Assembly: GCA_039091855.1 (NCBI GenBank)
Contig: JAWCLA010000013.1
Coordinates: forward strand, 1 to 17,652
Direction: 5' to 3'
DNA from: Candidatus Aenigmatarchaeota archaeon
GTDB taxonomy: Archaea; Aenigmatarchaeota; Aenigmatarchaeia; QMZP01
DNA: 17,652 nucleotides
Position numbers and translations under genes: made by a program. Positions 4,797 to 17,652 of the stretch are shown piece by piece. Positions within the stretch are counted from its first letter, which is position 1, and every line of letters begins with the position of its first letter. The notes beneath the pieces are model-generated. The model saw nothing but the letters and a program-made list of their open reading frames with translations, ran no database searches and was not told where the DNA came from.

Positions 4797-6533
4797 TTAA
4801 CACTTTGGCGCGCAAACGCCCTTTCCTCCCGGAACCTCAGGGCAGCATTTTTGGTCCTTTGCGCAGTCGTCATCGGTGCAGCACCAGCTGCCAAAATCTA
4901 CTTTGATTATTTTTTCCTGTGAAATCGAGTAAGTGTATTTTGCTTTGGCTGTTATAACATACGATTTTGTGGGGCTGTTTCCAAGCTTAACTTCCAGTTT
5001 TTTAACATGGCAATAGAAGTATTTATCTCCAGATTTCATACTTTCCCATTTAATGGTGCAATGACTATCTTTGCATTCTGGTTTTGCATATGGAACGCAA
5101 TTATCAATATCAAAATCCTTTGGATAAGTGAGTTCCACACTCTCAATATTTTCTATCTTACCACCTTTTTGTGCGCTTAGAATGCTAAGACCTATGTGGA
5201 AATCCTGGTCCTCCCTTATTGGGCTCTTCAATCCTGGTGTTCCTATAGGGAACCTGACAGGCCCGCTTGTGTATTCTGACTGAACGTCCTTGAGCTGTAG
5301 CTTGTCCATTTTTGAAAGCCTCTCCCACTCGTCTTTGCTTATGAATTCGAGCTTTTCAGTTCCCTTGCCTAAAACCGAGTCAGTTGTGTATTTGTATCTA
5401 AGGGTTATGTTTATGGGTATGTATTTTTTCCTTAAGTCATAATCTTTAACAGCTTTACATTTTACGTTACCTGAATAATAAGTCTGCCATATGTTTTGGC
5501 GTGGGAAATTGTTATCTTGTTTTTCATCAAAATAGTAAACACATCTATAATCCTTATCATTATTCTTGCATTTATCGGTGTTTATGCCGAGCTCACTTAT
5601 TTTTATACGTGAGCCTGATGAGGACATAGGAGCATTGGAACCAGAACTGATTTCTATCTCTACATTTTGGGCGTCATATCCCCCACTGTTCTTTATATTA
5701 GCAGTTATCATAAATGGTTGCTCAATCAAAACGGGCGTCACCTCGAAGCTTGTGATTTCCAACCCGTAAGCACCTGTTTGTCCCACAGGATTGTAAGCAT
5801 AGCTTCCATTCATAAGCATTGTTGCATATCCCACAGGATTTGTCAGCAACATCCAGGCATTGCCTATAGTACCGCTTAACTGGGACCAAGCATTTCCAAG
5901 AGGCTGGAAGACAGATGAAGCATAGTTATGAACAGTGGGCCACCATTCGCCAAAGAAGGCAACACCTACATCCTGGGAACCAACACCTATTGCATAAATA
6001 ATAAAGGACCCTATGATTATAAAAATCCCAGTTGTTGTCCTTGATTCTATGTCACTAGCCAATCCTGAGACGAGCCCGAAAAGCCAAATGCCTGTGAAAA
6101 TTATCGCGCTGGTATTCCACTTCCATGGTTCCATCATCAACATTGAAAGGAAAATCAGGCCAACGCCTATGAGCAGAAATATGGAATTTTTGTTCCAGAA
6201 AGAAATACCGATAAAGAAAGCTGCACCAAAGAAAACAACAATTCCCAAGTAAGGCACGACTCCTGACACACCCAAGTCAAGACCCAGACCTATTGGACTA
6301 TCTCCAAAGCCAAATGCCCAAAACAAAAGAATACCCATAACTATTCCAAAAACCATTCTGTTTATAGTGTTCTCGGCGTTCCTGTTGGTAAAGGGTATGA
6401 AAAAAAGGAAAGCCCATGCCAAAACACAAAGGAACCAGGAATTAAATGCATAAAGAAAAGCCAACCCAACAAATAGACCAAAGGCTGACTTTGACCATGC
6501 CTTAATCAAATTCTCAAAGTCATATCCGGGCAT
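4797..6533 (-). CDS. Large membrane protein: multi-TM N-terminus, extracellular Ig/CARDB-like beta domains and a Cys-knot-like tail
   Basis: About eight hydrophobic segments in the first 190 aa. CARDB-like string FMITANIKNSGGYDAQNVEIEI. C-terminus WCCTDDDCAKDQKCCPEVPGGKGVCAPKC. Confidence 0.75.
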   Translation of the reverse strand: MPGYDFENLIKAWSKSAFGLFVGLAFLYAFNSWFLCVLAWAFLFFIPFTNRNAENTINRMVFGIVMGILLFWAFGFGDSPIGLGLDLGVSGVVPYLGIVVFFGAAFFIGISFWNKNSIFLLIGVGLIFLSMLMMEPWKWNTSAIIFTGIWLFGLVSGLASDIESRTTTGIFIIIGSFIIYAIGVGSQDVGVAFFGEWWPTVHNYASSVFQPLGNAWSQLSGTIGNAWMLLTNPVGYATMLMNGSYAYNPVGQTGAYGLEITSFEVTPVLIEQPFMITANIKNSGGYDAQNVEIEISSGSNAPMSSSGSRIKISELGINTDKCKNNDKDYRCVYYFDEKQDNNFPRQNIWQTYYSGNVKCKAVKDYDLRKKYIPINITLRYKYTTDSVLGKGTEKLEFISKDEWERLSKMDKLQLKDVQSEYTSGPVRFPIGTPGLKSPIREDQDFHIGLSILSAQKGGKIENIESVELTYPKDFDIDNCVPYAKPECKDSHCTIKWESMKSGDKYFYCHVKKLEVKLGNSPTKSYVITAKAKYTYSISQEKIIKVDFGSWCCTDDDCAKDQKCCPEVPGGKGVCAPKC

Positions 6534-6535
6534 AC

Positions 6536-8206
6536 TTACACTTCATCCTGGGATATAATCCTGCTCAACCATCTTGCCCTGCCACCTTCATGCACTCCTG
6601 TATCGGTTCTTTGGAACTTTATACTTGCATAAGCAATAAGGGCCGCTATTACTCCAATTGGTTTTGCAAGGGGTATTGATGACAAAACAAAAGCGAGGCT
6701 CAGGAGCGCAAATCCAGCTACGTGCAAAAGATGCTTGAATCCAGTTGACCAGGCAACGCTCTCCATCCTGAAATCCCTCAGCATAGAGATGGTTATCATT
6801 GTGTCATTCTTTCTCTGCTCTTCAATCTGTGCCTCAACGTCGGCACCCGCCTTTGAATATTTTTCCGATTTCTTCAGGTTTTCATAATACTCATTTATTT
6901 TCTCTATCCTATCCCTTATCTTACTGTAATTGTTTGGGGTTGGCAGGATTGAGGAAATCAAAAAGCAAATAAATGCGAAAAAGAAAAGGGGGCTCCCTAA
7001 AATGGCAGATGCAACAACACCTGCAAAAAGGAACCCTGCGCTTTTTGTTATATTTGATTTCAGGTTTCCTGTCATGTCAGAAAATATGTTGACCTTTCCT
7101 ATTGCACTAGGTACATATCTTACGCTTCTCACATCAAGTGAATTATCTTTTTCCTTGAGCCTCTCCATCTCCCATTTTAGCATCTCCCTTTTTGCCTCAT
7201 TCAGGTCATAATCAAACATCTGTCTTATGTATTTTGCATTCTCCTCTGGAACAACACCTGCCTTTACAAGAGCCCTTAGCCTCCTATCCAATTTGTCTCT
7301 ATCAAACCTTATGCGCTTGTAATGCGCAAATATCTTCCTTATTCTCTCTCTTGTTTCCCTTGTGCCTCCTGTGAAAGAAACCTTGTGACTCATTTCTTCA
7401 AGAGGCTTAAGCTCGAAATTTTGGTGAGCAGTATCAGGTGGCGGAGGTATTACAACCTTGTCAACATATTGGGAAAGGTATCCTCCTTCTGCTCCTTCTG
7501 CAATATACTCTCCTGCTTGTATTTTTTCAGGCTTAACTCGTCTTTCAGCCATCATATGGTATTCGCCAGGAGGAAGGTTGTAGATTTCATAATGACCCCT
7601 GTCATCGGTGGTTACACTTATATCAGCGTAAGGTCCCCAAATCCTAACCTTTGCACCAGGAACTCCCTTCCTCCATTTTGGAAATTGGGGATGATGTTTT
7701 CCCAAATAAGCTGTTTCTTCCGACCCTTCAAAATGGCCGTGCCAGACAAAACCTTCTATCGAAGGTTTAGGCTTTTGTTCATCTCCAAACAAATACTTTT
7801 CAGGCGAATACCTTTTGAATTTCAGATTTCTCTCAGGTGATTCCTTAAAGTCTTTGTATGCTTCATCTACCGCTCTTCTAATATGCTCGTCAAAACCGAA
7901 AGTAATATTGCCTATCCCCTTAGATTTATAAAAGGGTTTACTGAATTGCTCTCTCATCACTTTGATCGCTTCGTTTTTTGAATATGATTTAGCTCTTAAT
8001 AATTCTGCGGTTTCTTTAAGATTCAGATTTTTTAGATTCAGGTCAGAAGAGTGTTTTATTATCATATATATTTCTTCAGGTCTAAGATCACGATATTTAT
8101 CTTGATAATATGCTACTTGTTCAACCTCTTCATTGGTCGGTTTAAATCCTGCATCTAATAAAATTTTCTTTATTTTAGCTTCTGTTTCAGTAACCATCAC
8201 AACCAC
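6536..8206 (-). CDS. Membrane protein with an internal carboxypeptidase-regulatory-like (prealbumin-fold) domain and two C-terminal TM hairpins
   Basis: GVPGAKVRI...VTTDDRGHYEIYNLPPGEYHMMAE is the typical signature. Hydrophobic pairs near aa 390-420 and 490-530. The stop is 2 nt from the next start. The start may be ATG 8197. Confidence 0.75.
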   Translation of the reverse strand: MVVMVTETEAKIKKILLDAGFKPTNEEVEQVAYYQDKYRDLRPEEIYMIIKHSSDLNLKNLNLKETAELLRAKSYSKNEAIKVMREQFSKPFYKSKGIGNITFGFDEHIRRAVDEAYKDFKESPERNLKFKRYSPEKYLFGDEQKPKPSIEGFVWHGHFEGSEETAYLGKHHPQFPKWRKGVPGAKVRIWGPYADISVTTDDRGHYEIYNLPPGEYHMMAERRVKPEKIQAGEYIAEGAEGGYLSQYVDKVVIPPPPDTAHQNFELKPLEEMSHKVSFTGGTRETRERIRKIFAHYKRIRFDRDKLDRRLRALVKAGVVPEENAKYIRQMFDYDLNEAKREMLKWEMERLKEKDNSLDVRSVRYVPSAIGKVNIFSDMTGNLKSNITKSAGFLFAGVVASAILGSPLFFFAFICFLISSILPTPNNYSKIRDRIEKINEYYENLKKSEKYSKAGADVEAQIEEQRKNDTMITISMLRDFRMESVAWSTGFKHLLHVAGFALLSLAFVLSSIPLAKPIGVIAALIAYASIKFQRTDTGVHEGGRARWLSRIISQDEV

Positions 8207-8429: not shown

Positions 8430-9521
8430 TTATTCTCGTGTTTCATTAATCTCTTTTTCAAGCTTTTTCATCTCCCTTTCCTTCTTTTCCTGAATCTCTT
8501 TTTCAAGCTTTTTCATCTCCCTTTCCTTCTTTTCCTGAATCTCTTTTTCAAGCTTTTTCATCTCGTACTCGCGTTTCTTTTCCAAGCGAGCTTGCCATTT
8601 GTCTAATAATGGTTTCATTGTTTGCCAGTTTATGACATCGTTCAAATATCTGCATTTGATCATGAACCTGTCTATCACAGCCTTGAAGTATCTTTCTTCA
8701 AGTATTTTCATAGCAGCGCATGAATCCATTATTTGATAAAAGAAATGTCCAACAACCTGATTTTTCGACGAATATTCTAGCAATTCCTCTAACTTCAAAT
8801 CCTTTATCTCCCTTTTAATTTCTGGGAATGGGTCTAGACTCATTGGCAAATAATAATAAAAAAGATACAGTGCAACGTTATCCCATGTGTCATTATTTTT
8901 TTCAACGTTTATTCTTCTGGAATTCAGTTCATTCAACAAGTTATGGCTTACAGTGAGGTATTTCGACTGTTCTGCCGACGTCGAATAATCCTTCATTCGC
9001 GAATGGTAAATCCTAAAAGAGTAATGCATTGATTCATGCAGTGGTGTATGCGTATTCTCATATGCCTTTTTAATAAAGCAAAATGGACCTGAATTAATCC
9101 CTCTTACACTTGTACCCATTTTTAAAATTCTGCAAAATTTATCCCATTTATCATCCGGCACAATGATAGTTACATCATAAAGTCGCAGTCCTCTTTCAGA
9201 TTCTAAATTGTTGAATTTTTTAATTTCAGCATTTTTAAGACAGTCTTTTATTTCAATTTTTTCTTCATCTGTTTCTGATAGACAAGTTGAAACATACTCA
9301 AAAAATGCATTTCTATTCTCATTTGCTAATTCCAAAAGAAGGTTTTGGTTCCTTTTAGCTGTTTTCAAGTCAGATAGAAGTCCTCTTACATTACTCATTA
9401 TAAGGGCCCGCTCCGCTTTAAAACTAAATCCACAAGAAGTGCAGTACTCATTTAATGTTTCGTTTAGCTTTCCACAACGTGGGCATTTCTTATACTTTAT
9501 TATTTTTATTTCTTCATCCAT
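8430..9521 (-). CDS. Zinc-ribbon + putative HExxH metallopeptidase + coiled-coil repeat protein
   Basis: N-terminal CPRC-x10-CTSC. PLHESMHYSF with a downstream NELNS as a candidate third ligand. C-terminal repeats of EKKEREMKKLEKEIQ. Confidence 0.7.
   Translation of the reverse strand: MDEEIKIIKYKKCPRCGKLNETLNEYCTSCGFSFKAERALIMSNVRGLLSDLKTAKRNQNLLLELANENRNAFFEYVSTCLSETDEEKIEIKDCLKNAEIKKFNNLESERGLRLYDVTIIVPDDKWDKFCRILKMGTSVRGINSGPFCFIKKAYENTHTPLHESMHYSFRIYHSRMKDYSTSAEQSKYLTVSHNLLNELNSRRINVEKNNDTWDNVALYLFYYYLPMSLDPFPEIKREIKDLKLEELLEYSSKNQVVGHFFYQIMDSCAAMKILEERYFKAVIDRFMIKCRYLNDVINWQTMKPLLDKWQARLEKKREYEMKKLEKEIQEKKEREMKKLEKEIQEKKEREMKKLEKEINETRE
8448..8564. repeat. Perfect 45-bp coding tandem repeat, 2.6 copies
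   Basis: The unit AATCTCTTTTTCAAGCTTTTTCATCTCCCTTTCCTTCTTTTCCTG occurs at 8448 and 8493, with a 27-bp partial copy at 8538. Confidence 0.95.
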
Positions 9522-10337: not shown

Positions 10338-10847
10338 TCAAGCAAACACATAGAAAGTTGACTTTCCCGAGCCGCACTTTCTCAGTATCTTCATCCTTAC
10401 CATTTTGTTCAGGTCCTGTGTTGCAGTCCTTTTGGAAACCCTGTTTATCTGCCTGTATTCCGATGCTGTTATCTGCCCGTACCTGTAAACGTAATCTATT
10501 GCCTTTCTTTGTTTTTTGTCCGTTCCCCTTGGATATTCTGTGCTTCCGAAATCGTAGTCAATACCTTTTGAAGAGCCGGGGACAGCCCCAACCTTCCTTT
10601 TCATCATTCCCCTGTACATAGCCTCCAACACGTCATGTCCGCCGAACCCGGCGAAAAACGCCAGCAGATGGCTTTCAGGCTCTATTATTATTGCGGTTAT
10701 TATTCCTATTATAAGGGAGGTGGTTATGGTGAACAAAACCTTGTCCCTGCTGAAGCCGAAGCCAGTCTTTCTTTTTGATATACCTATCAGAACTCTCATC
10801 AGCCCGCCTGCAACCGCTGCAACGACAGTTTCCGTAAGCGTCAGCAT
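10338..10847 (-). CDS. Small 3-TM (holin-like) domain fused to a C-terminal winged HTH
   Basis: N-terminal AGGLMRVLIG ... AGFGGHDVLE membrane module. C-terminal ITASEYRQINRVSKRTATQDLNKMVRMKILRKCGSGKSTFY is a DeoR/HTH_11-like wHTH. Confidence 0.7.
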   Translation of the reverse strand: MLTLTETVVAAVAGGLMRVLIGISKRKTGFGFSRDKVLFTITTSLIIGIITAIIIEPESHLLAFFAGFGGHDVLEAMYRGMMKRKVGAVPGSSKGIDYDFGSTEYPRGTDKKQRKAIDYVYRYGQITASEYRQINRVSKRTATQDLNKMVRMKILRKCGSGKSTFYVFA

Positions 10848-10855
10848 GTTTTCCC

Positions 10856-11137
10856 CTAAATTGCTATTTCCCTTTTCCTCAAAATCTCGAAAAGGCTGTT
10901 CATCAGGTCAACACCAACATAGCCAACCAGCACCGCAGCAAACACAACCTTCCAGGAAACCATAAGGTAGAGAGAGCCCTCAAAATAGAAAAAAGCAAAG
11001 GCAGAAACTACACCAACAAACCCTGTGATTGCCAAAACCAGCGGTATGTTCTTGTTTTTTGGCTTACCGTGGGAAACAAAGCCCAACAACGACCTCAAGA
11101 GCCCCCCAACAAATCCCCAGAGAGCAACCTCAATCAT
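10856..11137 (-). CDS. Small 3-TM membrane protein, paralogue of the N-terminus of the next gene (holin-like)
   Basis: VGGLLRSLLG ... VGYVGVDLMN aligns by eye with AGGLMRVLIG ... AGFGGHDVLE. Basic C-terminal tail. Confidence 0.7.
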   Translation of the reverse strand: MIEVALWGFVGGLLRSLLGFVSHGKPKNKNIPLVLAITGFVGVVSAFAFFYFEGSLYLMVSWKVVFAAVLVGYVGVDLMNSLFEILRKREIAI

Positions 11138-11175: not shown

Positions 11176-12924
11176 TCACACAACTGCCTCTGTCTGTTTC
11201 AGGTAGGCAGCGTAATCCCTCCTGAAAGTCATCACGTAGTCAACGAGCTGCCTTGTCTCTATTGGCAGGCGCTTCCTTATCTTGCTGTAATCACTTCCAT
11301 ACCTGTTTACGAGCCTTTTCAGGTTGCCGTAACCATAATTGTATGCAGCCAGGGCAATCCTCTCATCACCAAACTTGTCAATAAGGAATCTCAAATAGTT
11401 TGTCCCGCACCTGGAATTGACATCAGGGTCAAAAAGACTTTCCCTCGTTTTGTCCCAGCCATATCCCTCTGCTGTTGAGGGAAGAAGCTGCATCAAACCA
11501 ACCGCCCCCGATGGGCTCACAAGATTCGGGTTCCATCCGCTTTCCTTGTGGACAAGGGCAAAAACCATATCCCTTTGCAGGGAGTTTCTCATCGCATTTG
11601 CGGAAACTATCCTTCTTAAATTGTCAGTTCCCGGAACAGGTATCTCGGGCTTGACAAGGGAAACAGGGACGTATCCTGCATCAGTTTTTATGTCAGGCTC
11701 CTCCTGAACCATAGCATAAAACAACATTTCGCAGTAGCTTTTTTCATAACAGGGCTCCGTGTCTATCACATTCCCGTTGCTGTCATATGAAACAAATGCG
11801 AGAAGTTTGGTGTTGTATTCCAAAACCGCCGCTTCCTTCATAAGCTCCTCCGGAGAGTAGCTGAAAACAAAGACCAGAGTCAATGGGCTCATCACAACCC
11901 TCTCCCCATCATACACCGGGAAAGTCTGGTCATCCCTTGTGTTGGTTATATCAAACCTGACTTTGACATCAGGTATGAATTCCAGCTCAGACTTGACCCC
12001 TCCCTGAAACACCTCGTGGCTTTTCTCAGTCCATAGAAGGTTAATCTTCTGCACATCAACCGAGATGTCATAATCCACGCCTGTCTCTGAAAGCTTGTGT
12101 AGTCCTGTTTTTGCCTTTTCTATGAAGGTTTTGTTGATTTCAGAAAGCTTTCTTCCGAGCTCCTCTTCTGACGTTGCCGTTATCTGTTCAGGAGGGTTCG
12201 TTTCTTCAATAGCCCTGTCCACGACAGATCGCGCTGAACTGAAAGCTTCCAAACCCTTTGCATAAATACCGTAACAATCTATCGAATACTCTCCCTGCAA
12301 AAACCCGTATTTTTCCAGCCTTATCCTCTCGCCGCTTTCCTGCATTTTTTCAATCCAGAAGTTGCTGTTGTTCCAAGCCCCAACGGACAGCTGGTAGGGC
12401 TGATACATCACCACGTCCACTTCATAAGCAGGGATGTTAACAAGATAGTCAGTCATGAACCTGTAGGGGCTTTTCCTGTAAAGCTCGAGGTTGCTCTTTA
12501 TGGATTTTTTCAGCTCGCCTTCAATCTCTTCCTCTTCAGGATAAGTTCCTACGGAACTCCATATTGCATATCCATTGTATGTTGGCTTTCCCTTCAGGCT
12601 CTCCCAACCACCATTCCTTAGGGTGTCATAACAAGCCTGATAGGTGGAATAAGCCAGAGACGTTTCCATATACAGCTTTGCCGCTTCAAGGGCGTTGCCC
12701 ATTATGTGAATCTCAGAGCGGACTTCTATGTCTTTCTCTATCTGCCCCGTCTTCAGGTAGGGAATGTTTATGGCTGCAATTAAAATTGCTATTATAATTC
12801 CTGCTGTGATTGCAGGCAAAACGAGGCTCGTGCCTTTCAGCTTTACGGAAGTAAGGCGAGCGTCGCCAAAAGTCCTATCAATTTCACTCTTATTTCCGGG
12901 CTCTTTTTTCATGCTCAATCCCAT
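11176..12924 (-). CDS. Pilin-like (class III signal) protein with a C-terminal SLT lytic transglycosylase domain
   Basis: KLKG followed by the hydrophobic TSLVLPAITAGIIIAILIAAI. SLT motifs: ALVHKESGWNP (catalytic Glu), SPSGAVGLMQL, LFDP..N...GTNYL, ALAAYNYG and ETRQLV. Alternative start ATG 12912. Confidence 0.9.
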   Translation of the reverse strand: MGLSMKKEPGNKSEIDRTFGDARLTSVKLKGTSLVLPAITAGIIIAILIAAINIPYLKTGQIEKDIEVRSEIHIMGNALEAAKLYMETSLAYSTYQACYDTLRNGGWESLKGKPTYNGYAIWSSVGTYPEEEEIEGELKKSIKSNLELYRKSPYRFMTDYLVNIPAYEVDVVMYQPYQLSVGAWNNSNFWIEKMQESGERIRLEKYGFLQGEYSIDCYGIYAKGLEAFSSARSVVDRAIEETNPPEQITATSEEELGRKLSEINKTFIEKAKTGLHKLSETGVDYDISVDVQKINLLWTEKSHEVFQGGVKSELEFIPDVKVRFDITNTRDDQTFPVYDGERVVMSPLTLVFVFSYSPEELMKEAAVLEYNTKLLAFVSYDSNGNVIDTEPCYEKSYCEMLFYAMVQEEPDIKTDAGYVPVSLVKPEIPVPGTDNLRRIVSANAMRNSLQRDMVFALVHKESGWNPNLVSPSGAVGLMQLLPSTAEGYGWDKTRESLFDPDVNSRCGTNYLRFLIDKFGDERIALAAYNYGYGNLKRLVNRYGSDYSKIRKRLPIETRQLVDYVMTFRRDYAAYLKQTEAVV

Positions 12925-14006
12925 TGCTTGAACGTTATCTTTCCCCTCACGTTTCCTGATTTTGCCCCAGGAAGTGGGATGTCAGTCTCGTAGCTTCTTA
13001 CAGATTTCCCTTCTATAATTCCTGAAACGTATTTGCAGGCAGCAACCTCCTTATGTTCGCAACTGCCCGAAACTCCCGTAAGGTCTAAAAATAAACACGG
13101 ATTTATGGCAGTTTTGTCAGACGGGAATTTTTCTGTCCCGACCTCAAAATGCAGGTGATAGCCCGTCTGTCCAACAGTGAAACCCGTGTTGCCTGACTTT
13201 CCGATTATTCTCCCATTCTTTCCCGCGACAGGTATTTCATCACCCACCTTCACATTGATAGAACTAAGGTGGGCATAAAACGTGTAGTAATCATATTTTT
13301 CAGGCTTTCCTGCAGAAACCAATCCAGGTATTGGATGTCCTATCACCACAAGATTCCCATAACCACCATAAGAACCTGCAAAAACCACCTTCCCGGGCGC
13401 GGCTGCATACACATCCACTTCCTTTCCTGCTATGTCAATTCCACCATGGCAGTCACATTTCCTGTCTCCCAAATCCCTGCCGCCAAACCCCGATGTTATC
13501 TCTTTGGAGTCTGAGGGCCACTTAAGCTTGCCGTTATTCTCTATTTTCTTTTTCAGTTCTTCAGGAACCTCCTGAAATGAGGTTGGACAGTTTAAAATGA
13601 CTTTCCTTGTTTCATCTGTCAGAGTCTCGGGCACGTTCTTGCTGAACTTCACTGAGCTTCCTGCTGCTGTAAAAGTGAAGTCATAACCCCTGTAAGCCTC
13701 GTCCATAGTTTTCTGCAAGGGATTCAGGCGGCTGGACCTTTCCTCTGCTATCCCTTCAGCAACATACCTGCCCAAAAGCTCTATATGCTTCACATCTGTG
13801 GTTTTCGCGTTAAGCAGGCTGACAAGCTCTGTGCCTATGTCATCATTAACCATAAATATGTGAAGCGTTCCCTTGATGCTTATTACCTTATAAACAATGC
13901 CAAAATAGTTGGCTATGAAATCGCCCACCAAAACTATTGCCGCTATTATAATAACCATCAATAGTAGAAGCATAAAATCCACTGCCGACTTCCTTCTCCT
14001 ACTCAT
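12915..14006 (-). CDS. Pilin-like protein with an M23 family zinc endopeptidase domain
   Basis: Basic leader MSRRRKS followed by the hydrophobic AVDFMLLLLMVIIIAAIVLVG. M23 motifs: WP...ITSGFGGR, HGGID (HxxxD), GGYGNLVVIGH, YAHL, SGNTG, HLHFEV (HxH) and INP. Confidence 0.92.
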   Translation of the reverse strand: MSRRRKSAVDFMLLLLMVIIIAAIVLVGDFIANYFGIVYKVISIKGTLHIFMVNDDIGTELVSLLNAKTTDVKHIELLGRYVAEGIAEERSSRLNPLQKTMDEAYRGYDFTFTAAGSSVKFSKNVPETLTDETRKVILNCPTSFQEVPEELKKKIENNGKLKWPSDSKEITSGFGGRDLGDRKCDCHGGIDIAGKEVDVYAAAPGKVVFAGSYGGYGNLVVIGHPIPGLVSAGKPEKYDYYTFYAHLSSINVKVGDEIPVAGKNGRIIGKSGNTGFTVGQTGYHLHFEVGTEKFPSDKTAINPCLFLDLTGVSGSCEHKEVAACKYVSGIIEGKSVRSYETDIPLPGAKSGNVRGKITFKQWD

Positions 14007-14466
14007 ACACATTCACCTTAAGGCTTGCTAGATAGTTTCTTTCGCCATCCGTAATGGTAACGAAAATCCTGTGCTTGTATTTGCCTGACTCATCATAATT
14101 GAAGTCATAGTAATCTCCCTTTTTCGGGCCTCCCTTGACAAGCCCGCCTTCCAGATACTCCACCCTTGCCCCTGTTTTTGCATTACATTTGCATAAATCC
14201 GGCGAACATATTTGGCTGCCTTCTTTACTTTTAAGAAGGCTTGCCTGTATTGTCCCGTCCATTCCAGTAAGGCAGCTCTTTACTATGTGTGCAGCATCTA
14301 CTGCTTCTATCTGCTTCTCAACTATCCTCATGTCAGCCGCATAGTTCAGCATGTTTGCCTGCACGAACATAATAAGCGCGACAACCGCACCAACGAATAT
14401 CACTATGCCCAATGGGGTTGTCACATATTCGTAATCTCCTTTCAGCCTCTTTGAAAATTTCAGCAT
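13999..14466 (-). CDS. Pilin-like protein (class III signal peptide)
   Basis: MLKFSKRLKG followed by DYEYVTTPLGIVIFVGAVVALIMFV, then a small Cys-containing globular domain. ATG 14466 overlaps the upstream stop. Confidence 0.75.
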   Translation of the reverse strand: MLKFSKRLKGDYEYVTTPLGIVIFVGAVVALIMFVQANMLNYAADMRIVEKQIEAVDAAHIVKSCLTGMDGTIQASLLKSKEGSQICSPDLCKCNAKTGARVEYLEGGLVKGGPKKGDYYDFNYDESGKYKHRIFVTITDGERNYLASLKVNVYE

Positions 14467-15479
14467 AATTTGCACCCCTGAAGCGCGCAGGTGTTTTGAG
14501 CATAACAGCTGTTTCTGTATGAAAGAACACCATTAACATATCCTCTTGTCTGTTTTGGGAGGCATTCGCAATTCGTTATATCTTGCAATGTTGACTTGGC
14601 ACCAAGCCCGCATATCTTTATGCATTCGTGGCAGTTCTGCTTATTACCTTCACTGCATTTGTCTTTTTCAAGAAGCCATCCCGGACCTGTGTTGTAAGCA
14701 ACCAGTCCGAGCTCCACGCTGCCAAAAGCCTTTATTTGGTCCGAAAGGTATTTTGTTCCCAACATAACATTGGTCCTGGCATCAAAAACATTCTTGTCAG
14801 CCTGACCTGTATCAATCCCTTCCGCGGTGCTTGGCATAACCTGCATAAGCCCAACTGCACCTTTTGAAGATATTGTGTAAGGGTTTCCCTCCTTGCAGTC
14901 TTTGCAGTGGCAAGCCTTGCTCTCCTGCGTTATAACCGCTTTTATGAGGTTTGCGTCCACATTGTACTTCTCCGAAGCCTCTTTCACGTAACTCTTTATC
15001 TCTTCCATAGATGGCTGTCTTGTGCATATTTCGCCTGTTGGAATCCATTCCCACCCACCTGTTATCTCCCCCTTCAGAGAAATCTTCCCGTCCAAGCCCT
15101 TTATAACAGAAATCTTGTTGGCTGTTATAGGAGAAACAGGGTCTATCTTTACAAGGAGCGGCACTTCAAAGAAATTACCCTTCTCGTCATAAGTTACCTT
15201 CACGTACATCACGCCCTTCTTGTCATATATCTCAACCCTCATCGGCTGGGAACCCTTGGTAAGGCTGAAATCCTTCTCCACCCTTCCAGCATCCATAGTT
15301 GATAGGGTGTTCACAGAAATCGCAATCATATTTGCCATCACCCTTGCCTGCCCTTCCCTGCTCGATTCAAGTCCGGCAAGCAACCTTACCACAACGACGA
15401 GGGCAAGCATGCAGATAACAAGGGCTCCCATGAGGAAAATCATCCTTTCCTTGGCTTGAGCCTTTTTCACTTTGCGCAT
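14460..15479 (-). CDS. Pilin-like protein with a Cys-rich SLT lytic transglycosylase domain
   Basis: Class III signal MRKVKKA|QAKERMIFLMGALVICMLALVVVV. SLT motifs: YNVDANLIKAVITQES, SSKGAVGLMQVMPST, NVMLGTKYL, AYNTGPG and QTRGYV. Confidence 0.92.
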   Translation of the reverse strand: MRKVKKAQAKERMIFLMGALVICMLALVVVVRLLAGLESSREGQARVMANMIAISVNTLSTMDAGRVEKDFSLTKGSQPMRVEIYDKKGVMYVKVTYDEKGNFFEVPLLVKIDPVSPITANKISVIKGLDGKISLKGEITGGWEWIPTGEICTRQPSMEEIKSYVKEASEKYNVDANLIKAVITQESKACHCKDCKEGNPYTISSKGAVGLMQVMPSTAEGIDTGQADKNVFDARTNVMLGTKYLSDQIKAFGSVELGLVAYNTGPGWLLEKDKCSEGNKQNCHECIKICGLGAKSTLQDITNCECLPKQTRGYVNGVLSYRNSCYAQNTCALQGCKLC

Positions 15480-16186
15480 GGGTATTCAACTATACGATAA
15501 ACATATCCTGCCTTATTGTTTTCACTCACAGGAGAATCCACCTTCAGCGGCTTGTAGCAGTATTCAAAAGCCTTCTCGTTTTTTAGTATGTCCATCTTGA
15601 GTTGGGAAAGGTCGTTGGGATTGCAAATTCCTTTGGGTATGCAGTAGGGATAGTTGCTTCCAACAGTATTGTCAAATGGTACATCAAGCGTCTTGCATAT
15701 AGGCTTTATCCTCACTATGTATTGCCTTCCCTCTTCCCAAACTTGTTTAAAACTCAGGTATGGATGTTTTATCCATTCAGAAAACTTTGAGAAAAATCCC
15801 TTGTCCTTTCTTGCCTCCTCTGCCAGCGTCTTGTAGGGAATTACCAGTATGTAAGCCTTCACAGTATCAGAGTTCGCGCACCTGTCATTTATCACCTCGG
15901 AAAAGCCAAGCCCCTTGTCATCATCCTTGTTGAACATTATAATACCACCAACACAGTCGCCTGCTGTTATCTTCAAGACTTCCTGAGATTTCTCATCGTT
16001 TGAGTTTTTTGCTTTTGCAAGGCTTGATTTTATGGAATCTGCTGTTTTGTCAGCATCCGCCCAGCACTTTCCCTGGGTTATCTCGATGAACTTGTTCAGT
16101 GCCCAAGATATAACAACGGCAACAAGTATTATCCCAAAAGCAATGAAAATTATCACCACAAGCGCAGGTATCGCAGCCTTTCTCAT
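15467..16186 (-). CDS. Pilin-like protein (class III signal peptide) with a Cys-containing globular domain
   Basis: MRKA followed by AIPALVVIIFIAFGIILVAVVISW. ATG 16186 is preferred over GTG 16207 because it gives a canonical short leader. Confidence 0.75.
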   Translation of the reverse strand: MRKAAIPALVVIIFIAFGIILVAVVISWALNKFIEITQGKCWADADKTADSIKSSLAKAKNSNDEKSQEVLKITAGDCVGGIIMFNKDDDKGLGFSEVINDRCANSDTVKAYILVIPYKTLAEEARKDKGFFSKFSEWIKHPYLSFKQVWEEGRQYIVRIKPICKTLDVPFDNTVGSNYPYCIPKGICNPNDLSQLKMDILKNEKAFEYCYKPLKVDSPVSENNKAGYVYRIVEYPCAK

Positions 16187-16235
16187 AGTATAGTTATTGG
16201 CTTCCACGCTTAAATTGATGAGAAATGTGGCTTTA

Positions 16236-16385
16236 TCAGGGCTTTATGTTAATGTCCCATCCCATAAGCTTTCCGGTCAGGAACCATATTATTGCAATCA
16301 CAGCTATTGTGATTATAACTGCTATAATCAGCCAGAGCATAATAGAAGCCACGCCTTTCCTGAATTTTACCAAAAATCCGAGCAT
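16236..16385 (-). CDS. Very small pilin-like peptide (49 aa)
   Basis: MLGFLVKFRKG|VASIMLWLIIAVIITIAVIAIIWFL. ATG 16385 lies 2 nt after the upstream stop. Confidence 0.75.
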   Translation of the reverse strand: MLGFLVKFRKGVASIMLWLIIAVIITIAVIAIIWFLTGKLMGWDINIKP

Positions 16386-16387
16386 AA

Positions 16388-16507
16388 TTATCCCCAAATC
16401 CTGAATTTTGTCAGTGCGTACCACACAAGCACAGCAACAATAATAATTGTGGCAAAGAAGAATATAAGCCAGTGCGCAATTGCCTCGCTCTCTCCCTGCC
16501 CTTTCAT
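16388..16507 (-). CDS. Very small pilin-like peptide (39 aa)
   Basis: MKG|QGESEAIAHWLIFFFATIIIVAVLVW has KG-Q and a Glu at +5. ATG 16507 overlaps the upstream TGA (ATGA), so the 16633 start in the ORF track is unlikely. Confidence 0.75.
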   Translation of the reverse strand: MKGQGESEAIAHWLIFFFATIIIVAVLVWYALTKFRIWG

Positions 16508-16713
16508 GGCTTGTTTCCTCCCGGAAGATTCAAGGGCGACCCTGTTCCAGCAGGAGGCTTTGCCTGACCGCTCAATACCTGCCTGAACCATTCCTGCAAC
16601 CCTTTCAATATGCTTCCTGATTCGCCTCCCCAAATCCCTATCAGAGCCACAAACACAACAAAGGCTATCACAATCAGGACAATCACGACAAGGACTTTTA
16701 TTGTGAATTCCAT
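16504..16713 (-). CDS. Small pilin-like membrane protein lacking a basic leader (69 aa)
   Basis: MEFTIKVLVVIVLIVIAFVVFVALI, then an amphipathic helix and a Pro/Gly tail. GGAGG upstream. Starts 2 nt after the previous stop. Confidence 0.7.
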   Translation of the reverse strand: MEFTIKVLVVIVLIVIAFVVFVALIGIWGGESGSILKGLQEWFRQVLSGQAKPPAGTGSPLNLPGGNKP

Positions 16714-16715
16714 AG

Positions 16716-17651
16716 TTAACCTATTCCTCCATCGGGCCAGTTATGCTGGCTTACAAGCTGGGCGAATCCTAGAAGACAATTGGCTGCTGTGCTGGCTGCC
16801 CATGTCGCAGGATGGGGTATCCTTTTAGCGATGGCGTCTATGGCAAACACGGTTGTTGTTGCCGCAACGCCATTGAACCATGGCTCTACCGCATAACAGT
16901 AGTTAGGGTTATCCTTTGTAGACTTGTAATTTTTGGCATTGACCGTTGTCGCTACGCCTCTTACCCAGCAGTTCCAGTACGAGACGGCGTCTATATCCCC
17001 GTTGGTGTTCTGATCATCGAACACGAAGGCCTTGGCATCTTCGGGTATCCTGTTATCGACTATCTGATTTGGGAATAGCGCAAACTCATCCCATCTTCCA
17101 TCCAGATTGCTATCCTTGAAGAATGCAAGGGAACTCCTTCCAGGATCGCCTGAGAATATCACCATCTCAAATACATTAGGGTAATATTTTTCTACGCCAT
17201 TGAAATAATATTCGTCGTTGTCATTACTTTTGTAACCATCGATCCACTGCCATTTGGTGTCATATAATCTCTCCTTTATCCAGATAATCTCTCCTGCTTC
17301 CAGAGACGAAACACCCTGGATGCCTGTGTCCCTCTTGAACTTTTCATATGCATCTATCTTGTAGACATCAGCGGGATCGATGTAAATGAGGCAAAACTCA
17401 GAGTATTGTTCATTCGTGTTTTCTTTAAAGAGGTTTTCCAAGATATTAACCCCCTTTATCTTGCTGAGGGTTTCAGGGGTCAAGCCCAGGACTTCCACGA
17501 AGTCTGAATAAGAATTGCCGCAAACTATTTGAAGCCCTTGGATTTTCTGTTGTCCGTTATCAAATAAATTCGCCTTGTAGCAGACTAATCTGTCAGGTAT
17601 GCCGGAGCAGTCGCTTCTTTCTATATCCTGCAGATACGCTGTGGAGCTGGC
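16716..17651 (-). CDS. C-terminal part of a larger, probably extracellular protein, 5'-truncated by the window edge
   Basis: The frame is open upstream of GTG 17498 to the window end (ASSTAYLQDIERSDCSGIPDRLVC...). It has Dx[DN]xDG-like loops (DSNLDGRWDE, DQNTNGDIDA) and an Ala-rich hydrophobic C-terminus ending NWPDGGIG. Confidence 0.8.
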   Translation of the reverse strand, partial: ASSTAYLQDIERSDCSGIPDRLVCYKANLFDNGQQKIQGLQIVCGNSYSDFVEVLGLTPETLSKIKGVNILENLFKENTNEQYSEFCLIYIDPADVYKIDAYEKFKRDTGIQGVSSLEAGEIIWIKERLYDTKWQWIDGYKSNDNDEYYFNGVEKYYPNVFEMVIFSGDPGRSSLAFFKDSNLDGRWDEFALFPNQIVDNRIPEDAKAFVFDDQNTNGDIDAVSYWNCWVRGVATTVNAKNYKSTKDNPNYCYAVEPWFNGVAATTTVFAIDAIAKRIPHPATWAASTAANCLLGFAQLVSQHNWPDGGIG

Positions 17652-17652
17652 A

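Follow-up and report, generated by a model that had tools for sequence, protein, structure and literature searches.

The window studied here, a stretch of 17,652 nucleotides that makes up the whole of contig C5 in the assembly of a Candidatus Aenigmatarchaeota archaeon (GCA_039091855.1), carries an operon of nine tightly coupled open reading frames (ORFs), A, B, C1, C2 and D to H, read on the minus strand from position 17652 to 11176 (Table 1). Judged from sequence, the operon products look like bitopic surface proteins whose N-termini resemble archaeal class III (prepilin-type) signals, in which a short basic leader with Gly or Ala at its end precedes some 20 hydrophobic residues at the head of a long alpha-helix, and three of them carry murein hydrolase domains. 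Sequence comparison further indicates that one order of Ca. Aenigmatarchaeota conserves this gene set on its chromosomes, the operon being the window's copy of it. The scaffolds occur with and without enzymes, and the enzymes vary by lineage but are almost all murein-directed. We consider it probable that the proteins are modular minor-pilin-like subunits of a type IV filament, displaying a murein-cutting toolkit against a bacterial wall on contact. From the features described below we infer that the leaders are cleaved, that a filament assembles, that the subunits sit at its tip, that the enzymes are active and that they target bacteria.

Hydrolase domains and prepilin-like leaders

Three operon products match murein hydrolase families far above the curated Pfam cut-offs, which are 21.3 bits for SLT and 28.7 bits for M23. 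H carries an SLT domain (PF01464, residues 442-543, 90.7 bits), E carries a second one (PF01464, residues 164-274, 82.5 bits) and G carries a Peptidase_M23 domain (PF01551, residues 189-295, 74.1 bits); the six others (A, B, C1, C2, D and F) gave no Pfam or NCBIfam family. G aligns with lysostaphin and TagE across the HxxxD motif, the central histidine and the HxH motif. E and H retain the Glu-Ser, GLMQ and AYNxG motifs, which we take to be those of family 1 lytic transglycosylases, and a phmmer search of PDB sequences with E returned nothing at an E-value of 1e-5 or below. Among orthologous domains, the M23 motifs are intact in 11 of 13 (the exceptions are at loci L055 and L061) and the SLT catalytic glutamate is also intact in 11 of 13 (the exceptions being L047 and the partial L064). 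With family scores above the cut-offs and motifs intact, the original prediction of three catalytically complete hydrolases, an SLT domain in H, an M23 domain in G and an SLT domain in E, is upheld. The M23 domain of G precedes a conserved C-terminal strand that is kept by orthologues of about 150 residues without M23 (alignment A4), so the domain is inserted inside the G scaffold and is not a tail.

The genome as a whole holds three SLT domains and one M23 domain. The third SLT protein (C7:9968-10846, corresponding to L016:1222-2100 on the minus strand; 292 residues) stands alone outside the operon; its N-terminus resembles a signal or anchor, and a LysM domain lies at its C-terminus (SLT 66 bits, LysM 28.3 bits).

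We scored leaders at the first 27 loci by the residue that follows the last lysine or arginine before the hydrophobic segment. Glycine or alanine occupies this position in 26 of 27 H leaders (20 Gly, 6 Ala), in 21 of 25 G leaders (19 Gly, 2 Ala, with 1 Ser besides) and in 17 of 21 F leaders (16 Gly, 1 Ala, again with 1 Ser), against 29 of 189 (11 Gly, 18 Ala) in a background set from the window's genome, made up of ORFs with a hydrophobic segment at the N-terminus; the orthologues in these counts are not independent of one another. Gly31 is invariant in the 15-row alignment A1 despite varying leader length, and the two-residue motif is kept in five paralogous families while the leader varies from 2 to about 30 residues, a sign that a processing site is under constraint. 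Leaders of the class III type, kept across orthologues, are found in F, G, H, C1 and C2. Those of D and E are weaker, both ending K-A in the window, and in many E proteins our simple rule picks a second basic residue after a K-G. The original prediction had described six leaders and one bare helix; the pattern holds, with B as the bare helix, but the leaders number seven (C1, C2, D, E, F, G and H).

Conservation and module exchange across the order

The gene set is widespread in the order to which the window belongs. A profile of H (alignment A1) matches 83 of the 90 other genomes of the order and 127 of 371 genomes phylum-wide, counting matches to the N-terminal part and to the SLT part alike; by family within the order, the counts are 43/46, 1/1, 5/5, 12/14, 1/1 and 21/23 (f1 to f6). 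We examined 47 loci, the window and 46 others that are a subset of the matching genomes, calling ORFs with a simple longest-ORF script, so that start codons are upper bounds, and assigning families by jackhmmer seeded with the window proteins. The order large A, small B/C, then D-E-F-G-H recurs throughout these 47 loci, more than chance would give. At 26 of the 47, an Alba gene lies at most two ORFs downstream of H, and this conserved neighbour argues for a stable chromosomal locus and no mobile element. In the window, the Alba gene is missing from that position, and H is directly followed by two small membrane-protein genes (10338-11137, minus strand), whose counterparts in the same-genus genome G318 are found upstream of the operon and on the other strand (L045:17083-17960, plus strand). 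The moved gene pair and the lack of Alba after H indicate a local rearrangement.

What varies between loci is the enzymatic cargo. By jackhmmer assignment, SLT and M23 occur together at 20 of the 47 loci, SLT without M23 at 5, M23 without SLT at 3 and neither of them at 19. We then took Pfam censuses of H, G and E plus F at E-values of 1e-4 or below, leaving out an 82-residue H fragment (L056), three split-E pieces (L044) and a 70-residue F fragment (L077). The 47 H proteins scanned gave PG_binding_1 (6), SLT (5), Amidase_3 (2), GDSL (2), VanY (1), YkuD (1) and PKD (1); the 41 G proteins gave M23 (24), Glucosaminidase (2), Peptidase_M15_4 (1) and GDSL (1); and the 73 E and F proteins gave SLT (20). 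One H of 1,203 residues combines PKD, YkuD and Amidase_3, another of 690 residues combines GDSL with Amidase_3, and a third of 530 residues carries VanY. In some G proteins Glucosaminidase replaces M23, and one has GDSL in addition to M23. At two loci (L047:5076-5639, plus strand, and L085), SLT is a separate gene of about 190 residues upstream of the large A, not fused to E; these genes have their own leader of the operon type, and the L047 copy is without the catalytic glutamate.

As a check independent of the choice of loci, we searched 1.84 billion representative proteins with a profile of the H module, which returned 480 proteins at an E-value of 0.001 or below, 290 at 1e-10 or below and 183 at 1e-30 or below. 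Among the best 150, 31 proteins are at least 469 residues long, and these carry SLT (14), Amidase_3 (3), GDSL (2) and one each of M23, YkuD, M15_4, Glucosaminidase, PG_binding_1 and Peptidase_M64, together with PKD/fn3-type spacers. The pilin-like scaffold has thus captured at least eight murein-directed families: SLT, M23, Amidase_3, VanY/M15, YkuD, glucosaminidase, PG_binding_1 and GDSL esterase. Sister lineages bear no fewer than seven additional murein-directed Pfam families on the operon's scaffolds, which strengthens the earlier proposal that the system targets murein.

Neither Mur_ligase_M nor a transpeptidase domain was found in the genome, which at 84% completeness may contain gaps and so gives no proof of absence; the result agrees with the expectation that the host has no peptidoglycan synthesis of its own. 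If the archaeon makes no murein, the substrate must be a bacterial wall. Amidase_3, VanY/M15, YkuD and PG_binding_1 recognise features that pseudomurein lacks, and on these two grounds a bacterial wall is most likely the target. It is highly unlikely, in our estimate, that the modules have instead been re-targeted to a non-murein polymer, be it a glycan of an archaeal host (pseudomurein or some other), a chitin-like material or the envelope of the archaeon itself. To our knowledge, every DPANN host confirmed by cultivation to date is an archaeon, and chitin-like glycans can also serve as substrate or ligand for GH23 and LysM domains, both of which would suit such a shift. However, the captured Amidase_3, VanY/M15, YkuD, M23 and PG_binding_1 modules fit bonds that are absent from pseudomurein, namely MurNAc-L-Ala and D-amino-acid peptide bonds, and the catalytic motifs are conserved as in bacterial enzymes.

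Filament machinery, predicted structures and operon context

The genome encodes pilus machinery, as the original prediction anticipated: five T2SSE and six T2SSF matches, all unlinked to the operon, and an A24-like peptidase candidate that scores below the family cut-off. Canonical pilin-like genes adjoin ATPase and platform genes on two other contigs of the assembly (also labelled C1 and C2). The peptidase candidate is a multi-span ORF of 281 residues on contig C37, whose same-genus orthologues score about 36 bits, and of the 91 genomes in the order, 81 have a Peptidase_A24 match that exceeds the Pfam cut-off, including 23 of the 23 high-quality ones.

Predicted structures offer a further view of the scaffolds. 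AlphaFold2 models of F (21-row alignment, pLDDT 88.6) and of H residues 1-360 (31 rows, pLDDT 88.6) both have the extended N-terminal helix (about 50 residues in pilins) and beta-sheet head expected of a pilin: in F, a predicted helix of 55 residues (15-69) and a four-stranded sheet; in H, a predicted helix of 69 residues (35-103) and two alpha/beta lobes. When we compared the H model with solved structures using VIA-align, the type II secretion pseudopilin GspK came first (3ci0_K, Z 7.3, rmsd 2.5, 93 residues aligned), followed among pilins by the Thermus competence pilin TT_C0855 (Z 6.6), PilV (5.6) and PilX (5.2), although all H values lie below 8, a range that may reflect a common arrangement only. 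Further matches include FimU, EpsI/J, XcpV/W, PilA4, PilA5, ComZ and Streptococcus sanguinis PilA and PilB, so that type IV pilins or pseudopilins make up about 18 of the best 50, with alignments to both lobes. We regard the similarity of the H model to pilins as supportive, not decisive.

A predicted complex of H(1-360) with full-length G and F, scored for G, reached 0.77, whereas the best of its three controls reached 0.16; among solved complexes 58 of 80 attained that mark, and among mismatched pairs 2 of 110. This score is the model's own confidence, and both the use of our own alignments and the presence of three chains differ from the calibration. Agreement among the three runs extends to at least 85% of contacts, with partner pLDDT of at least 71, and the tightest predicted contacts join the C-terminal strand of G (341-355) to H residues 84-96, 149 and 336-338. 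The prediction supports the view that F, G and H bind each other. Taken together, leader conservation, long predicted helices, the match of H to GspK and minor pilins and the predicted F-G-H complex lend support to the pilin-like character first proposed for these proteins.

In addition to the limits on the Z values and the complex score, several results weigh against a filament that cuts walls. The window's G has a K-S leader, atypical for a class III signal; B is without a basic leader; and E and some D proteins have charged residues between the putative cleavage site and the helix, also atypical of class III. No operon protein matched a pilin or class III family in Pfam or NCBIfam, nor the bacterial N-methylation family at an E-value of 0.01 or below. 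The own-genome Peptidase_A24 match reaches 25.8 bits where the cut-off is 26.5 (E-value 0.0014 on the called ORF). Foldseek found nothing in the PDB for F or H at an E-value of 0.001 or below, the best VIA-align matches of F are Cache/PAS sensor domains (Z up to 7.0) with no pilin among the best 50, and hhalign of F against H aligned the six-residue leader alone (probability 2.3%). Neither within the operon nor next to it is there an ATPase, platform or peptidase gene, whether in the window, on C37 where the operon continues, or in the same-genus contig L018. The 19 of 47 loci without SLT or M23 indicate that the scaffold has a function independent of the hydrolases; this hydrolase-free role is probably a more general one in adhesion, to which the large Cys-rich A may contribute. 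In addition, 20 of the 47 loci were chosen partly for long H frames, which inflates the share of fusions.

Much of this would suit another arrangement, in which the N-termini are plain uncleaved signal anchors and the proteins form a membrane-bound ecto-enzyme complex, with no prepilin processing and no filament. We think this unlikely. It draws on the lack of assembly genes in the operon and of a pilin family match, on the sensor-domain matches of F, on the empty Foldseek result and on the charged residues after the K-G or K-A of E. It does not sit well with the excess of Gly or Ala over background at the leader site of H, G and F, with the resemblance of H to GspK and minor pilins, with predicted helices of 55-69 residues that go far beyond a membrane span, or with A24 peptidases that are near-universal in the order.

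The reading that we favour, a filament-borne set of wall-cutting subunits, accounts most simply for the conservation, leader, structure and module results, and could work as follows. The operon proteins would be inserted into the membrane, their leaders would be trimmed by the genome's A24-type prepilin peptidase, and assembly would be carried out by one of the several type IV filament ATPase/platform pairs encoded elsewhere in the genome. D to H may form a minor-pilin-like complex, with H resembling the type II secretion tip pseudopilin GspK, and this complex would sit on, or prime, a short filament of the small B/C subunits, while A would be a further surface or adhesin subunit. E (with SLT), G (with M23 in a loop) and H (with its C-terminal SLT) would jointly cut the glycan strand and the peptide cross-links. 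Since the enzymes are tethered to the cell, they would act on contact, most likely at the contact site itself, where the sacculus of a bacterium, be it host, prey or neighbour, would be opened or digested.

A somewhat unlikely alternative is nutritional: the tethered enzymes would digest free wall debris or dead bacteria for amino sugars and amino acids, with no breach of living cells. DPANN genomes are without many biosynthetic pathways, exo-acting or trimming modules such as VanY/M15, Amidase_3 and YkuD suit complete wall breakdown, and passages of one study propose peptidoglycan necromass feeding for Pacearchaeota (PMC11537232). Pilin-like tethering and the PG_binding_1 and LysM domains favour action at the contact site, although debris is still compatible with them. 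Going beyond our preferred reading of a contact-acting filament, it is possible, if tentative, that members of the order are cross-domain episymbionts or predators of bacteria equipped with a dedicated type IV filament ending in an enzymatic drill, its pilin subunits bearing exchangeable modules for cutting glycan, amide and peptide bonds that would bore into the sacculus on contact and be swapped between lineages to match the wall chemistry of the host.

We consider it very improbable that the operon encodes a type IV secretion or conjugation-like apparatus, possibly mobile, made of VirB8-like anchored proteins and VirB1/PrgK-like hydrolases. The company of SLT, M23 and small anchored proteins does recall the PrgK/TcpG-type hydrolases of monoderm conjugation, and Foldseek gave weak rows for TcpC and OrfG, which are VirB8-like (E-values 0.03-0.08, probability at most 0.18), but these rows are at noise level and pilins lead the VIA-align list of H. 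A Pfam scan of 19 ORFs of the window found no VirB4 or VirD4 ATPase, no VirB6-like protein and no relaxase family. The Alba-adjacent chromosomal position described above speaks against such an apparatus, as do zero matches of the operon DNA to a phage collection (blastn) and of the H module to a plasmid collection (tblastn).

The layout of the operon is given in Table 1. A and B are separated by 2 nucleotides, C1 and C2 by 2 and C2 and D by 28; B and C1 meet at ATGA, the ATG of C1 overlapping the TGA of B; and D/E, E/F, F/G and G/H overlap by 7-16 nucleotides, a range set by the choice of start codon. Co-orientation and tight packing had been recognised from the outset, but for eight genes, where we count nine.

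Table 1. ORFs of the operon, with positions in the window
ORF	Positions	Strand	Features
A	16716-17652	-	C-terminal 311 residues, 5' end cut by contig end; Cys-rich protein with pilin-like leader
B	16504-16713	-	69 residues; hydrophobic helix from the very start, no basic leader
C1	16388-16507	-	39-residue mini protein; three-residue leader M-K-G, then one helix
C2	16236-16385	-	49-residue mini protein from an internal ATG; leader ends R-K-G, then one helix
D	15467-16207	-	246 residues; pilin-like leader ending K-A; no known domain
E	14460-15479	-	339 residues; N-terminal module of ~150 residues with leader ending K-A; SLT at 14658-14990; Cys-rich tail
F	13999-14475	-	158 residues; leader ending K-G
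G	12915-14012	-	365 residues; leader ending K-S (K-G in most orthologues); M23 domain at 13128-13448
H	11176-12924	-	582 residues; leader ending K-G; GspK-like double pilin-like module at residues 1-360 (11845-12924), linker, C-terminal SLT at 11296-11601

Gene A continues beyond the window. Its N-terminus sits at the end of contig C37 of the same assembly (27282-27844), where the fragment is 54.5% identical to residues 1-99 of a 740-residue orthologue on L018; orthologues in relatives span about 740-1150 residues. Contig C21, which starts with T2SSF genes, had been a candidate for the adjoining contig and was ruled out when the N-terminus of A was found on C37. Both on C37 and in L018, the first gene of the operon is preceded by opposite-strand genes, so the suggestion that a pilus ATPase might lie upstream of the window did not hold; nor was an ATPase found in the operon at any of the 47 loci, in a family scan limited there to the operon's own families. 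No Pfam family was found among the 22 members of the A family scanned, and a search of the ESM Atlas with A reached unnamed archaeal clusters only (scores up to 0.81). B is a member of a family of small proteins of 45-125 residues, and proteins of this type are candidate major filament subunits. Elsewhere in the genome, two tandem genes of the B family (C26:2969-3583; 99 and 93 residues) share a near-identical hydrophobic helix, with Gly or Ala as the last of three leader residues, and the same family sits inside the operon in other lineages; this pair, too, is a candidate for the major filament subunit.

The assembly comprises 689,355 bases in 38 contigs, a genome of about 0.69 Mb, rated at 84.17% completeness and 0.13% contamination. 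The GC content of the window is even (0.34-0.48) and inside the range of the remaining contigs. That the contig is archaeal, and neither bacterial nor viral, is borne out by the archaeal/eukaryotic ribosomal protein Ribosomal_S3Ae in the genome, by DUF63 and DUF7343/MarR-type genes inside the window, by the names of the assemblies with H relatives (Candidatus Aenigmatarchaeota or 'uncultured archaeon') and by the zero matches to phage and plasmid collections. No small-subunit (SSU) rRNA was detected in the assembly, ARAGORN found only 4 tRNA genes in 689 kb, three of them with introns, and several contigs contain short runs of N, features that may stem from binning or masking rather than from the biology of the organism. 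Five DNA sequencing runs labelled hot springs metagenome contain part of the window, only one of them with at least half of the sampled words, and the matching runs include no RNA sequencing run.

The following proteins from the remainder of the window are all encoded on the minus strand. Two are Cys-rich predicted surface proteins without a Pfam family: one (1-1083), which runs off the contig, has a signal-like N-terminus, after which a short helical unit that contains Cys is repeated many times, and the second lies at 1704-2360. Two large overlapping genes (4797-8206) encode proteins of 578 and 556 residues, one multi-span with a Cys-rich C-terminal part and the other with a weak carboxypeptidase-regulatory-like domain and C-terminal membrane helices. 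A protein of 363 residues (8430-9521) has an N-terminal zinc-ribbon (weak Pfam match), and its C-terminal part is a series of 15-residue repeats, nearly identical and rich in Lys and Glu.

Comparison with known systems

In type II secretion, gspK is the largest member and the last gene of its set. H is likewise the last gene of its set and, at 582 residues, the largest of the proteins D to H. GspK in the GspI-GspJ-GspK tip complex (PDB 3ci0) is the best structural match of H, and both cases involve a hetero-complex of neighbouring gene products, which for the operon is predicted only. G has a domain inserted in its pilin-like module, as passages of a study of modular pilins describe for GspK (PMC8179133). 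The operon differs from the GspI-GspJ-GspK set in having no sequence homology to it, an archaeal host, no secretin or T2SS genes, only a modest Z and subunits that bear enzymes.

Bacterial modular pilins are a close parallel in design. The main text of one study of them describes more than 1,200 proteins in 264 architectures, including S. sanguinis PilB with a vWA module, PilC with a lectin module and one class with a peptidase module (PMC8179133). In these, as it would be in the operon, a pilin module with a class III signal is joined to a grafted functional module for display on a filament (PMC8179133). They are defined by the IPR012902 N-methylation motif, whereas no such motif was found in the operon proteins, and the operon is set apart from the pilins of that main text, whose Dataset S1 could list SLT or M23 architectures (PMC8179133). 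The operon further differs in its archaeal host, in having three modular subunits in one operon and in its murein-hydrolase grafts directed, as we read them, at another organism's wall. Its proteins would work like modular pilins yet fall outside the IPR012902 bacterial class.

Archaea are already known to use class III signals outside filaments. In the Sulfolobus bindosome, sugar-binding proteins carry class III signals and are not filament subunits. As the main text of a 2026 survey of archaeal type IV filaments presents them, archaeal class III binding proteins share with the operon prepilin-type signals and the use of type IV filament machinery for surface display; unlike the operon's enzymes, they bind solutes for uptake (PMC13705601). 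The same main text reports that such systems are scarce in DPANN and makes no mention of peptidoglycan, transglycosylase, M23 or hydrolase (PMC13705601).

Murein hydrolases in archaea have been described from two directions. SLT genes of DPANN, mainly giant proteins of Woesearchaeota and Pacearchaeota, have been read in the relevant passages of four studies as signs of interaction with bacteria (PMC8204110, PMC9723730, PMC10936187, PMC11537232). Like the operon, these are DPANN lytic transglycosylases proposed to bind or degrade bacterial walls; they are single giants of up to 3,000 residues, and the passages concerned describe no operon or pilin-like context for them (PMC8204110, PMC9723730). 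In the operon, by contrast, the enzymes are spread over pilin-like subunits, with glycan, peptide and amide cutting combined. SLT matches also lie within very long frames (1,046-3,646 residues) in other families of the class (for example at G211:C6, G193:C3 and G321:C24), which resemble the giant extracellular SLT proteins of other DPANN and are unlike the operon's architecture. Halobacteria, for their part, secrete peptidoglycan hydrolases that kill bacteria, according to the main text of one paper (PMC12352652). These resemble the operon's enzymes in being archaeal, M23-type, of bacterial origin and active on bacterial murein, but are soluble, modular, bacteriocin-like and patchily distributed, with PG_binding_1 domains; 'pilin' and 'class III' do not occur in that main text (PMC12352652). 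Type IV pili receive a single mention in the main comparative study of Aenigmarchaeota, and the words peptidoglycan, murein and transglycosylase do not occur in it (PMC8407114). A literature search, with supplements and subscription journals outside its coverage, found no earlier description of the operon.

The operon is a new combination of known kinds: modular pilins, display by archaeal class III signals, and the murein hydrolases of DPANN. Exploitation of bacteria by DPANN has so far been argued from isolated SLT genes, whereas the evidence from the operon is systematic; it offers a specific gene set by which to recognise bacteria-directed Aenigmatarchaeota, a list of defined proteins for assay and a hypothesis open to testing in enrichments from hot springs. 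If our preferred reading is right, this would be the first archaeal case of enzyme-bearing modular pilins, and the known roles of type IV filaments would come to include presenting enzymes that degrade the walls of organisms from another domain of life.

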